From NCBI GenBank assembly GCA_040756875.1, contig JBFLYH010000001.1, forward strand, positions 145,317 to 209,316: DNA of 64,000 nt, read 5' to 3'. Of this stretch, positions 42,950 to 44,378 are shown one piece after another. The translations under genes were made by a program, and so were the position numbers. The notes below the pieces were generated by a model. The model was given only the letters and a program-made list of their open reading frames with translations. It ran no database searches and had not been told where the DNA came from. Every line of letters begins with the position of its first letter. Position 1 is the first letter of the stretch. This DNA comes from a candidate division FCPU426 bacterium. Lineage in GTDB: Bacteria; Oederibacteriota; JAAXVQ01; JAUVAV01.

Positions 42950-42978
42950 TTGACACGCAAGGGTTTCCTGCTTACGAT
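42950..42978 (+). promoter_or_regulatory. Sigma-70 promoter for hgcAB: -35 TTGACA, 17-nt spacer, -10 TACGAT. A 5-3-5 palindrome TGGTT-CGT-AACCA follows at about 42992-43004.
   Basis: Motifs read directly from the sequence, about 60 nt upstream of the hgcA ATG. Coordinates are approximate. Confidence 0.4.
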
Positions 42979-43035
42979 TAAATTGCGATGGTGGTTCGTA
43001 ACCATTCGCTTTCCCGTTGAAGAAGGATTCGGCCA

Positions 43036-44061
43036 ATGCCCGACACCCCCCGCGATTTTTCCATCCCCCAGCCGACCCCCTTGGGCACCAAGCTGACCTG
43101 GCAGGATTATTGGGGTGCCGTCAAAGTCCGCTGGAATTGGGGCCGCGGCAATTACGCGATGCAGCCGGGTTTGTATTCAGTCAACGAGCCAGACGCGGAT
43201 TCAATCGTCCTGCTGTCAAGCAACTACAAACTCAGCCTGGACATGCTGCGCAAGCATCTCGGCCGCATGAAAGCCTGGGTGCTGGTATTGGATACCCGCG
43301 GCATCAACGTCTGGTGTGCGGCCGGCAAGGGGACTTTCGGTGCCGCGGAAGTGGTCCGCCAGGTTAAGTCCGTCCAACTGGCCCAGAGGGTCCGGCACCG
43401 CCGTCTGGTGGCTCCGCAGCTGGGTGCCCCGGGGTTGTCAGCCCAGGAAGTAAAAACCGGCTGCGACTTTGAGGTGGTGTTCGGGCCGGTGCGGGCGCAG
43501 GATTTGCAGGCTTTCGTCGAAGCCGGGTTCCGAGCCACGCCCCGTATGCGCCGCGTCGAGTTTTCCCTTGGAGACCGGCTGGTGCTGATTCCCGTGGAGG
43601 TGCTCGGCCATCTTAAACTGTTGGCCATCGTGGCCTTGGTTTTCGGCTTGGTGGACGGGCTGTTCCGCAACGTTTATTCCGTGAATCATGCGATAGCCGG
43701 CGCCCTGACCGCCGCTTTTTTCCTGGCGCTCGGTTTGTTCGCGGGATCGGTTCTTACACCGCTGCTGCTTCCCTGGGTTCCTGGCCGGGCTTTTTCCCTG
43801 AAAGGGGCGGTCGCCGGCCTGGTTGTGTTCATTGGTTTTGGGAGTATATTCCGGACGGTTTTGGTCTGGACGCCTTTGGTGGCTGCGGCCTGGCTGTTGC
43901 TGGTGCTGGCTACGGCGTCGTTTACAGCCATGAATTTTACCGGCAGTTCAACCTATACCTCCCTCTCTGGCGTTAAAAAAGAAATGAGTCTGGCTTTGCC
44001 CTTGCAGGCCCTGGCGGCGGTCGCCAGCTTGGTCTTGCTTATTCTGGTGCGGTTTCGATAA
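43036..44061 (+). CDS. hgcA: Mercury-methylating corrinoid protein HgcA
   Basis: The diagnostic cap-helix motif 'GINVWCAAGKGTFG' is present. There is an N-terminal corrinoid-binding (CFeSP-like) domain and a C-terminal domain with about five TM helices. Confidence 0.8.
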   Translation: MPDTPRDFSIPQPTPLGTKLTWQDYWGAVKVRWNWGRGNYAMQPGLYSVNEPDADSIVLLSSNYKLSLDMLRKHLGRMKAWVLVLDTRGINVWCAAGKGTFGAAEVVRQVKSVQLAQRVRHRRLVAPQLGAPGLSAQEVKTGCDFEVVFGPVRAQDLQAFVEAGFRATPRMRRVEFSLGDRLVLIPVEVLGHLKLLAIVALVFGLVDGLFRNVYSVNHAIAGALTAAFFLALGLFAGSVLTPLLLPWVPGRAFSLKGAVAGLVVFIGFGSIFRTVLVWTPLVAAAWLLLVLATASFTAMNFTGSSTYTSLSGVKKEMSLALPLQALAAVASLVLLILVRFR

Positions 44062-44069
44062 AAGACAAG

Positions 44070-44378
44070 ATGAACGGTTTTCGTTATTTAAAAAACGTAA
44101 CCACCCTGCGTTTCAACCCCGAACGCTGCAACGGCTGCCGGTTGTGCCTTCAGGTTTGCCCGCACGGTGTCCTCGAACCGGCTGAAAAACGGATTAAAAT
44201 CGGCGATGCGGACGCCTGCATGGAATGCGGAGCCTGCGCCCGCAATTGCCCGACCCAAGCCCTGCAGGTGAAAGCCGGCGTGGGTTGCGCCGGCGCCCTG
44301 CTCACCGGCTGGTTCTACCGGACCGAACCCACCTGCGACTGCGCTTGCCGTTCGGCCGCCCCGGTAAAAACGAAATAG
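44070..44378 (+). CDS. hgcB: Mercury-methylation ferredoxin HgcB (2x[4Fe-4S])
   Basis: Two CxxCxxCxxxCP motifs ('CNGCRLCLQVCP', 'CMECGACARNCP') are present, with the conserved Cys in 'GVGCAG' and a C-terminal Cys-rich tail 'CDCAC'. It lies 8 nt downstream of hgcA. Confidence 0.8.
   Translation: MNGFRYLKNVTTLRFNPERCNGCRLCLQVCPHGVLEPAEKRIKIGDADACMECGACARNCPTQALQVKAGVGCAGALLTGWFYRTEPTCDCACRSAAPVKTK

Follow-up and report, generated by a model that had tools for sequence, protein, structure and literature searches.

A predicted self-contained hgcAB operon with its own sigma-70-type promoter in a candidate division FCPU426 bacterium

Two adjacent reading frames within a 64,000-nucleotide stretch of DNA from an FCPU426 bacterium (the whole of which we refer to as the window) raise the questions of whether they are a genuine hgcA-hgcB mercury-methylation pair, and how such a pair would be expressed in this organism. 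An initial annotation of the sequence had described an intact pair with genes 8 nt apart, and every feature that it listed was found in place. We conclude, with a probability of roughly 0.9, that positions 42950–44378 represent a self-contained two-gene hgcAB operon of a candidate division FCPU426 bacterium, with its own sigma-70-type promoter and without an adjacent regulator. The features of the locus are collected in Table 1.

Table 1. Positions of the features at and around the hgcAB locus, numbered from the first letter of the window.
Feature	Positions	Strand	Description
Terminator-like hairpin	42855–42935	+	long stable stem 42855–42926, then UAUUUUCC
Sigma-70-type hgcAB promoter	42950–42978	+	−35 TTGACA 42950–42955, 17-nt spacer, −10 TACGAT 42973–42978
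Leader inverted repeat	42985–43009	+	∼+1 to +25 of predicted transcript; nested ATGGT...ACCAT and GCGA...TCGC arms
Shine-Dalgarno GAAGGA	43022–43027	+	8 nt before hgcA ATG; read from sequence
hgcA	43036–44061	+	341 aa; predicted corrinoid methyltransferase; N-terminal corrinoid-binding domain and C-terminal five-TM domain
hgcB	44070–44378	+	102 aa; 2x[4Fe-4S] ferredoxin; NF040864 match
Sigma-54-type −24/−12 element	44541–44557	+	TTGGCATCAATCCTGCT, ahead of hsp20; outside hgcAB

The two genes are separate reading frames on the same strand, with a gap of 8 nt (AAGACAAG) between the TAA of hgcA (44059–44061) and the ATG of hgcB. Both frames are intact, and the translation of hgcA contains the residues G-I-N-V-W-C-A-A-G-K-G-T-F, in which the cap-helix motif NVWCAAGK occupies residues 91–98 (the Cys94 codon being 43315–43317); the motif has been defined as N(V/I)WCA(A/G)GK, with its strict cysteine corresponding to Cys93 in strain ND132 (PMC7305189). 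Two of the checks suggested along with the initial annotation, a search with HgcA and HgcB profiles and an alignment of the cap-helix cysteine, bore it out. When compared with the NCBI equivalog models, which have curated cut-offs, HgcA scored 397.1 bits against NF040863 (HgcA_corrinoid; cut-off 275) over residues 18–339 of 341, and HgcB scored 122 bits against NF040864 (HgcB_ferredoxin; cut-off 99) over residues 5–93. Cys94, the counterpart of ND132 Cys93, is retained within a block (N91–G99, NVWCAAGKG) that shows no variation in either of two HgcA alignments, one of 35 sequences and one of 53, the larger of which spans many phyla. A C-terminal block, N-x-TG-xx-T-x-TS-xx-GV-xx-E (columns N300–E316), is also invariant across the 53 proteins.

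An AF2 model of HgcA (pLDDT 90.1 overall, and mostly above 90 in the C-terminal domain) contains five long C-terminal helices, at residues 178–207, 216–247, 253–271, 280–299 and 310–340, and the hydropathy profile displays five peaks, as for five TM helices. The only low-confidence part is the cap helix itself (residues 91–100; pLDDT ∼52), as expected because the model was built without cofactor; the ‘Cys-on’ geometry lies outside the model. The motif, the profile score and the five helices agree with the assignment of the gene at 43036 as hgcA, which had been made from its cap-helix motif and multi-TM C-terminus.

An alternative to this assignment is that the name hgcAB has been wrongly given to a fragment of the Wood-Ljungdahl CFeSP, or to the non-methylating paralog in which HgcAB-like modules are fused. 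The large subunit of CFeSP (AcsC/CdhE) shares with HgcA a Rossmann-like corrinoid-binding domain (Pfam CdhD; matched over ∼127 residues), CdhD is the only Pfam domain detected in HgcA, and the matches returned by a PDB sequence search were all CFeSP. However, HgcA reached just 61 bits against the CFeSP gamma model (cut-off 306) and 185 bits against the fused HgcAB_like model NF043039 (cut-off 285), both below cut-off, as compared to its score above the HgcA equivalog cut-off. A Foldseek search with the HgcA model placed 9a0b_A, the deposited ND132 HgcAB model and an entry surfaced by fold search only, first over the full length (E = 6e-20, 330 columns, 43% identity; 9a0b is itself a computed integrative model), whereas CFeSP aligned over the corrinoid-binding domain only (124–129 columns, E = 2e-6, rmsd 3.4 Å, 23–25% identity). 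CFeSP lacks a TM domain and the cobalt-ligating cap-helix cysteine that is present here, and includes a TIM barrel as well as an N-terminal [4Fe-4S] domain of its own. The fused protein comprises homologous corrinoid-binding, membrane and ferredoxin modules on a single polypeptide, while the frames described here are parted by a stop codon and the intergenic gap. (The non-methylating status of the fused paralog is as described in the initial annotation, which had named a best match to that clade or to CFeSP as grounds for abandoning its call.) We give the mis-call next to no chance of being correct, and these sequence and model comparisons indicate that the pair is a bona fide, unfused hgcAB, neither a fused HgcAB-like paralog nor CFeSP.

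The downstream gene has the HgcB architecture that had been claimed for it. Its two CxxCxxCxxxCP motifs (CNGCRLCLQVCP at residues 20–31 and CMECGACARNCP at 50–61) are followed by Cys73 within GVGCAG (codon 44286–44288) and by a tail with cysteines 89, 91 and 93 (CDCAC, or CxCxC). The pattern of the nine cysteines up to Cys73 was found in 148 of 149 HgcB proteins that adjoin other hgcA genes, and a cysteine equivalent to Cys73 in all 148 surveyed HgcB proteins with both motifs. In ND132 that strict cysteine, ∼12 residues past the second motif, is likewise Cys73, and the tail cysteines are Cys94/95; mutagenesis summarised in the same source indicates that one tail cysteine suffices (PMC7305189). 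A vicinal Cys-Cys pair is present in the tails of 123 of the 148 surveyed proteins, and is replaced by CxCxC in this one.

Among the closest known systems is that of ND132 (Pseudodesulfovibrio mercurii/Desulfovibrio desulfuricans; Parks et al. 2013; model 9a0b, Cooper et al. 2020), a sulfate reducer of the Desulfobacterota in which hgcA is likewise followed by a separate, adjacent hgcB; the host described here is an uncultured FCPU426 bacterium. The HgcA proteins have the same N-V-W-C-A-A-G-K motif (with the cobalt-ligating cysteine at 93 in ND132 and 94 here) and a five-helix membrane domain, and the nine HgcB cysteines upstream of the tail (20/23/26/30/50/53/56/60/73; ND132 numbering from PMC7305189) are at identical positions. 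The systems differ in the HgcB tail, which ends in a Cys94-Cys95 pair in ND132 and contains C-D-C-A-C here, and in that the present locus has no co-transcribed ArsR-like gene upstream, and is preceded by its own sigma-70-type promoter after a terminator.

By analogy to the published mechanism (PMC7305189 and PMC11588087), HgcA would act as a membrane-anchored corrinoid protein with Cys94 as its ‘Cys-on’ cobalt ligand. Once methylated, for which Zheng et al. 2024 give SAM as the donor, the corrinoid would pass its methyl group to Hg(II). HgcB, translated from the adjoining frame, would re-reduce cobalt via its two [4Fe-4S] clusters, and its Cys73 and Cys-rich tail may handle Hg(II) and CH3Hg+. 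Based on the presence of all catalytic residues, on family membership and on architecture, the organism is predicted to be able to methylate Hg, and we infer methylmercury production by the host.

The relatives within the clade were obtained by exact-protein look-ups of P0002–P0005, which led to Logan assemblies of the P0002/P0003 and P0004 lineages. In the three nearest public relatives, HgcA is 76–77% identical to the protein described here. The gene order is also the same, proceeding from an Rrf2-cysK-metY-thiI-like segment through DUF2378-like, hypothetical, hgcA, hgcB, hsp20, Fe-ADH, ABM and GH99-like genes, as are the promoter hexamers and their spacing, the CxCxC tail of HgcB and a sigma-54-type element before hsp20. 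The relatives differ in that their hgcA and hgcB genes overlap by 4 nt (ATGA) rather than being separated, in an HgcA N-terminus that is ∼11 residues longer, and in the leader between the −10 element and the Shine-Dalgarno sequence; the upstream hypothetical protein is just 40–57% identical between them and the window. L087 and L088 seemed at first to have lost hgcB; the gene is in fact intact in both and is missing from the stored gene calls only. Scans of genome and metagenome contigs with HgcA gave, among the matches listed, identities of 42–54%, none of them to members of the clade. The GC content of hgcAB (0.602) matches that of the window (0.608), and a recent horizontal transfer was rejected on this compositional test. 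Because the GC content matches and the gene order is kept in relatives of 76–77% identity, the sequence comparisons argue for vertical inheritance of hgcAB within the clade.

The near-consensus sigma-70 promoter that had been recognised ahead of hgcA is supported. It matches the consensus at 10 of 12 positions (just six sites in the whole window reach at least 10/12), and the pattern TTGACA-17-TACGAT occurs once on both strands of the window, as compared to an expectation of 0.01. All five related upstream regions, from three lineages, share the extended sequence ATTGACA-N17-TACGATT without change, while the intergenic DNA around it can hardly be aligned; the aligned GGAAGG/GAAGGA sequence and the hgcA ATG are conserved as well. 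Footprinting of the promoter and leader was limited to these three lineages, the only ones found, because a search of 5.8 billion proteins with HgcA yielded just four clusters above 56% identity. Immediately upstream, RNA of positions 42834–42945 is predicted to fold with −48.9 kcal/mol (z = −3.24), and none of 200 shuffled sequences folded as well; canonical terminators consisting of a GC hairpin and T7 are found at the same place in the relatives L081, L085 and L087. The hairpin probably ends the transcript of the upstream gene and insulates hgcAB. From this promoter, which sits a short way past that terminator, transcription would start ∼7 nt after the −10 element (near 42985) and would produce a leader of ∼51 nt containing the GAAGGA ribosome-binding site.

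No regulator genes were found within 4 kb on either side of hgcAB and no HTH_5 or HTH_20 gene within 10 kb, the nearest regulator being the Rrf2 gene that heads the cysK-metY operon ∼5 kb upstream; the ND132-type, ArsR-regulated arrangement of hgcAB is absent from the locus. With no dedicated regulator encoded next to the pair, the most likely mode of expression would be constitutive, driven by a housekeeping-type promoter. The initial annotation was correct in its list of neighbours: the upstream gene encodes a 231-residue protein whose N-terminus resembles a signal peptide and which has no match in Pfam, the DUF2378-like match is sub-threshold (20.3 bits vs a cut-off of 22.2), and a gene with an Hsp20 match (hsp20, 44603–45010) lies downstream of hgcB. 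The non-arsR context that it pointed out is unremarkable: an ArsR-type ORF is located directly upstream in just 18 of 135 surveyed hgcA loci, and most hgcAB loci lack an adjacent ArsR. Its remark that no hgcAB regulator has been firmly established is outdated. Regulation linked to ArsR and SAH has been reported in ND132.

It is possible, although in our view on the unlikely side, that these are genuine HgcA and HgcB proteins with some other physiological job (halomethane dehalogenation, or a role connected with arsenic or SAM), and that methylmercury is a side product. A 2026 preprint on heterologously expressed HgcAB, which reports dechlorination of CCl4 alongside Hg methylation (10.64898/2026.04.26.720869), points in that direction, as do the ArsR/SAH-linked regulation in ND132, the conserved cysK-metY sulfur amino-acid operon near the locus, and an ArsC-type gene directly upstream of hgcA in 14 of the 135 surveyed loci, including the nearest outgroup (L170). 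Against it, no ars or dehalogenase genes are found within 10 kb. Such a function would be compatible with the predicted capacity of the organism for Hg methylation.

The remaining feature of the leader is the palindrome that the initial annotation had put forward as a possible regulator site. The sequence TGGTT-CGT-AACCA is indeed present, at 42992–43004, nested in the longer inverted repeat; the proposed role is not supported. Of all 57-nt stretches of the window, 28% contain a 5-bp stem without mismatch around a loop of 3–8 nt (6% for a 3-nt loop), and the leader sequence has been replaced in relatives with 76–77% identical HgcA, next to promoter hexamers that are invariant. Were the palindrome (or the whole repeat) bound as an operator by a repressor or activator encoded in trans, its position at ∼+8 to +20 from the predicted start would be one where repressors can act, and a weak (C/G)GTT...AAC(C/G) theme can be discerned by eye at a similar distance from the −10 element in all three lineages; the spacing of those half-sites, however, is 3, 2 and 6 nt, and the nearest regulator gene is the distant Rrf2 gene. 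When up to one mismatch is allowed, the window contains slightly more copies of the pattern than expected (5 vs 1.7, a count reached by 4 of 100 shuffles). Of the other copies, at 14093, 14120, 29559 and 55214, the three that were checked (14093, 14120 and 55214) are all inside long ORFs. TGGTTCG words at ∼42787 and ∼42813, considered as further operator copies, were discarded as Trp-Phe codons of the conserved C-terminus of the upstream protein (RHWFERPAWLRWFDS). We regard an operator at this position as highly improbable.

An action of the repeat as RNA, through a 5′-terminal stem-loop that stabilises the hgcAB mRNA or modulates its translation, is somewhat easier to entertain and still doubtful. 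The predicted +1 would coincide with the start of the hairpin or adjoin it, a different and stronger GC hairpin (UGCCGGCG-N9-CGCCGGCA) occupies the same position in the L081/L085 lineage, and the isolated repeat folds with −9.1 kcal/mol (z = −2.2, for a segment picked after the fact). The whole leader, in contrast, folds no better than shuffled sequences (z = −1.0, with values of −1.1 and +0.2 in the other lineages), the stem in the L087 lineage is just 4 bp, and the RNAalifold consensus of four leaders contains neither a common hairpin nor any compensatory pair, three lineages being too few for a covariation test. A scan of the whole window, leader included, returned no Rfam family, and so no riboswitch or known leader. 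Because its frequency is at chance level, its sequence is unconserved, compensatory pairs are absent and the other copies checked lie in genes, a regulator site at the palindrome is unsupported; the palindrome is most likely incidental, and at most a generic 5′ stem-loop.

At the other end of the operon, no terminator was found after hgcB by RNA folding, and read-through into hsp20 is therefore possible. Judging from its sequence, the sigma-54-type element in the intervening spacer would mark where a separate unit begins downstream: the four aligned hgcB-hsp20 spacers all have TTGGCAT.AA.CCTGC unchanged, and TGGCAY-N5-YTGCW occurs twice in the window as compared to 0.38 expected.

NCBI already lists an identical protein under the name HgcA, encoded on a 1.6-Mb contig of an FCPU426 MAG. 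The locus is otherwise textbook, a routine member of the known hgcAB family for which the public genome annotation is already correct. A search of the literature accessible to us found no paper linking FCPU426 with hgcA, the only co-occurrence of the two being in a taxonomy review. A far-reaching view would be that FCPU426 (proposed ‘Ca. Luxamiota’; soil, peat and groundwater) is an unrecognised mercury-methylator clade with vertically inherited hgcAB and a fixed housekeeping-type promoter free of ArsR-type control, in which the 5′ hairpin, conserved in position and variable in sequence, is a real post-transcriptional element that helps to keep HgcAB abundance low; we consider that combination speculative and improbable. 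To our knowledge, hgcAB is the only genetic marker for microbial methylmercury production, and each added carrier phylum therefore changes which lineages are counted as potential methylators. The attribution of hgcAB to FCPU426, a little-studied candidate phylum, is in that respect a small but useful taxonomic addition. The conserved stand-alone promoter illustrates one way in which hgcAB may be expressed without an ArsR-type regulator, and gives a fixed point from which hgcA transcripts can be read in metatranscriptome data on the clade.

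We consider the call of a functional-type hgcAB pair to be right and robust, at a probability of about 0.9. Both open reading frames are exactly as the initial annotation had described them, and their products score above the cut-offs of the respective NCBIfam equivalog models (397 bits against 275 for HgcA_corrinoid, and 122 bits against 99 for HgcB_ferredoxin); Pfam recognizes only generic CdhD and Fer4 domains in them. The two alternative identities named beforehand, a fused HgcAB-like paralog (185 bits against a cut-off of 285) and the CFeSP gamma subunit of the Wood-Ljungdahl pathway (61 bits against 306), were both rejected with the corresponding NCBIfam models. 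The claimed cap-helix motif is found in HgcA as GINVWCAAGKGTF, its cysteine being residue 94. When the protein was aligned with 34, and again with 52, HgcAs of diverse phyla, columns N91-V-W-C94-A-A-G-K-G99 and F101 are invariant, as is the C-terminal block N-x-TG-xx-T-x-TS-xx-GV-xx-E (columns N300–E316).

An AlphaFold2 model of HgcA, generated from a 53-sequence alignment (mean pLDDT 90.1, pTM 0.86), has an N-terminal domain of alpha/beta type, after which come five long helices (residues 178–207, 216–247, 253–271, 280–299 and 310–340). Its sole low-confidence stretch is the cap helix (residues 91–100), as expected for a model that lacks the corrinoid. In a Foldseek search of a copy of the PDB, the deposited model of HgcAB from the methylator ND132 (9a0b_A; Cooper et al.) ranked first (E = 6e-20, 43% identity over 330 columns), whereas CFeSP large subunits ranked below it and covered only about 127 residues of the window's HgcA at 23–25% identity. 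A PDB sequence search found no experimentally solved HgcA.

Features of the hgcAB region and related elements in the window
Feature	Position	Strand	Detail
Exact TGGCAY-N5-YTGCW match	33731–33746	-	TGGCACGCTTTCTGCA
Rrf2-cysK-metY-ThiI-like operon	about 37500–41265	+	cysteine/homocysteine synthesis; ThiI-like: PP-loop + NFACT-R_2; L171 4477–8230
DUF2378-like gene	41828–41274	-	
Promoter facing DUF2378-like gene	41895–41867	-	TTGACA-17-TAAAGT
Upstream hypothetical gene	42138–42833	+	231 aa; signal-peptide-like N-terminus; no Pfam match
Terminator-like hairpin	42855–42926, to 42935	+	followed by UAUUUUCC
hgcAB promoter	42950–42955 and 42973–42978	+	TTGACA, 17-nt spacer, TACGAT; 10/12 consensus positions
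Leader palindrome	42992–43004		TGGTT-CGT-AACCA; lies within ATGGT...ACCAT and GCGA...TCGC arms (42985–43009)
hgcA ribosome-binding site	8 nt before ATG	+	GAAGGA
hgcA	43036–44061	+	341 aa; stop TAA at 44059–44061
hgcB	44070–44378	+	102 aa; starts eight nt after hgcA stop
HgcB tail	44334–44348	+	residues 89–93
Sigma-54-type -24/-12 element	44541–44557	+	TTGGCATCAATCCTGCT; about 47 nt before hsp20 start
hsp20	44603–45010	+	

The architecture proposed for HgcB (two cluster motifs, an internal cysteine and a cysteine-rich tail) is likewise complete. Its cysteines (20, 23, 26, 30, 50, 53, 56, 60 and 73, with 89, 91 and 93 in the tail) coincide with the positions listed for ND132 HgcB, in which Cys 20, 23, 26 and 60 ligate cluster A, Cys 50, 53, 56 and 30 ligate cluster B, and Cys73 is strictly conserved (PMC7305189). 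Both cluster motifs are found in 148 of 149 HgcBs extracted adjoining hgcA in other loci, every one of those 148 has an equivalent of Cys73, and 123 of them carry a vicinal Cys-Cys in or at the end of the tail. The tail of the window's clade (the window and the relatives' contigs L081, L085 and L087) reads C-D-C-(A/G)-C(-K-C), without Cys-Cys; according to mutagenesis summarised in PMC7305189, one tail cysteine suffices for activity. L087 (7056–7370) and L088 (5701–6015) each contain an intact hgcB that matches the one called in L089 exactly but was skipped in their stored gene calls, so that its absence from such tables should not be taken for gene loss.

An identical 341-aa protein, on a 1.6-Mb contig, is named 'MAG: mercury methylation corrinoid protein HgcA [candidate division FCPU426 bacterium]' at NCBI, and the HgcA call is therefore already in public annotation. 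We found no paper linking FCPU426 with hgcA in the searchable literature; the locus is new only as to its host phylum. Only three other 90%-identity clusters (P0002, P0003 and P0004, together two lineages) exceed 60% identity to the window's HgcA, at 76–77%; P0005 follows at 59%, and all others are at or below 54%. The contigs with these three clusters keep the window's gene order: Rrf2, cysK (PALP), metY (Cys_Met_Meta_PP) and a ThiI-like gene; an oppositely oriented DUF2378-like gene; a hypothetical gene encoding a signal-peptide-like N-terminus; hgcA and hgcB; then hsp20, a small hypothetical gene, and Fe-ADH, ABM and GH99-like genes. This synteny, and a GC content of hgcAB equal to that of the window (0.602 against 0.608), suggest that hgcAB was inherited vertically within the clade.

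The near-consensus sigma-70 promoter reported before hgcA is present and, as judged by its conservation, is real. Its exact pattern occurs once in the window, against 0.01 expected, and the 64 kb contain only six sites of equal quality (at least 10/12 matches), both strands included. The alignment of relatives is the more telling evidence for this predicted element: ATTGACA-N17-TACGATT is invariant in all five aligned upstream regions (three lineages), together with a few spacer bases (TTC-TG), the Shine-Dalgarno sequence and the ATG, and the remaining intergenic DNA is barely alignable. The hairpin directly upstream (-48.9 kcal/mol, z = -3.24, with none of 200 shuffles as stable) is probably a terminator; relatives carry compact canonical GC-hairpin + T7 terminators at that position, whereas in the window both the loop and the inner stem are far larger. 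Given the conserved promoter and this hairpin, hgcAB has its own promoter just past the probable terminator of the preceding gene. The promoter facing the DUF2378-like gene is another of the six sites.

The leader palindrome is present as claimed, and its interpretation as a regulator site did not hold up. A perfect 5-bp stem with a 3–8 nt loop occurs in 28% of all 57-nt stretches of the window (6% for a 3-nt loop), and of the palindrome's other matches in the window, at 14093, 14120, 29559 and 55214, the three examined (14093, 14120 and 55214) lie inside long ORFs. At the same position the L081/L085 lineage carries another hairpin, rich in GC (UGCCGGCG-N9-CGCCGGCA), and the L087 lineage retains only GGTT...AACC with a 6-nt loop; half-site spacing that varies in this way beside promoter hexamers that do not is evidence against the operator of a dimeric regulator, and we regard an operator for an hgcAB regulator as very improbable. 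The TGGTT words that recur before the promoter are explained by the conserved C-terminus of the 231-aa protein, RHWFERPAWLRWFDS, which is encoded there. Action at the RNA level, through a generic 5' stem-loop, is possible but unsupported, and unlikely: the isolated window hairpin reaches z = -2.2, though as a post hoc choice, whole leaders fold no better than shuffles in any of the three lineages (z = -1.0, -1.1 and +0.2), and RNAalifold across the leaders detected neither a common hairpin nor compensatory pairs. We do not count the palindrome as evidence for regulation.

The non-arsR context, put forward as distinctive, proved ordinary, and the premise that no hgcAB regulator is firmly established needs updating. 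We surveyed 135 hgcA loci, among the matches listed in genome and metagenome scans, by Pfam analysis of the upstream ORF (chosen heuristically as the longest overlapping a zone 40–400 nt before hgcA). MarR_2 ORFs (20/135) were about as frequent as those of ArsR type (HTH_5 / HTH_20; 18/135), followed by ArsC-type LMWPc (14/135), DsbD_2-type membrane proteins (8 loci), DAHP synthase (6 loci), Acr3 (SBF; 4/135) and ArsP (3/135). Because ArsR and MarR are both winged-helix families, these sets may overlap, placing an adjacent winged-helix regulator in 15% to 28% of loci; the window, like most, has none. The nearest outgroup locus, L170 (HgcA at 59% identity), differs from the window's clade in its arsenic-linked context: its hgcA lies 51 nt beyond the end of an ArsC-type LMW phosphatase gene (2–451), and its hgcB is followed by a TetR-family gene (2052–2537).

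The neighbourhood of hgcAB is clade-specific and unremarkable. In about 160 loci from other phyla, among the matches listed, no homologues of the immediate neighbours adjoin hgcA, indicating a lineage-specific linkage and not a functional signature. The 231-aa upstream protein is confined to this clade and fast-evolving (40–57% identity, against 76–77% for HgcA). Downstream of hgcB we found no terminator-like structure (fold z = +1.16). TTGGCAT.AA.CCTGC before hsp20 is invariant in all three lineages in an otherwise divergent spacer, marking hsp20 as a separately controlled unit and suggesting that this small heat-shock gene depends on sigma-54 together with an enhancer-binding protein, an uncommon mode of control for hsp20. 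The window holds only one other exact match to TGGCAY-N5-YTGCW, on the minus strand. The cysK-metY operon, which all three lineages keep 1.8 kb upstream of hgcA, is suggestive, since the methyl donor of HgcAB is reported to be SAM and mercury uptake is thiol-dependent; its proximity may equally be plain synteny.

In the proposal of a 2026 preprint (10.64898/2026.04.26.720869), the dehalogenation of halomethanes is a further, or the ancestral, activity, and the window's sequence does not discriminate between this role and mercury methylation. By homology to the mechanism described in the literature, HgcA would bind a corrinoid with Cys-on cobalt ligation, the two [4Fe-4S] clusters of HgcB would reduce the cobalt to Co(I), and SAM would supply the methyl group (Zheng et al. 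2024; PMC11588087) that is handed on to Hg(II). Cys73 and the tail cysteines of HgcB may serve in Hg(II) delivery and CH3Hg+ removal, as has been proposed for these residues (PMC7305189).
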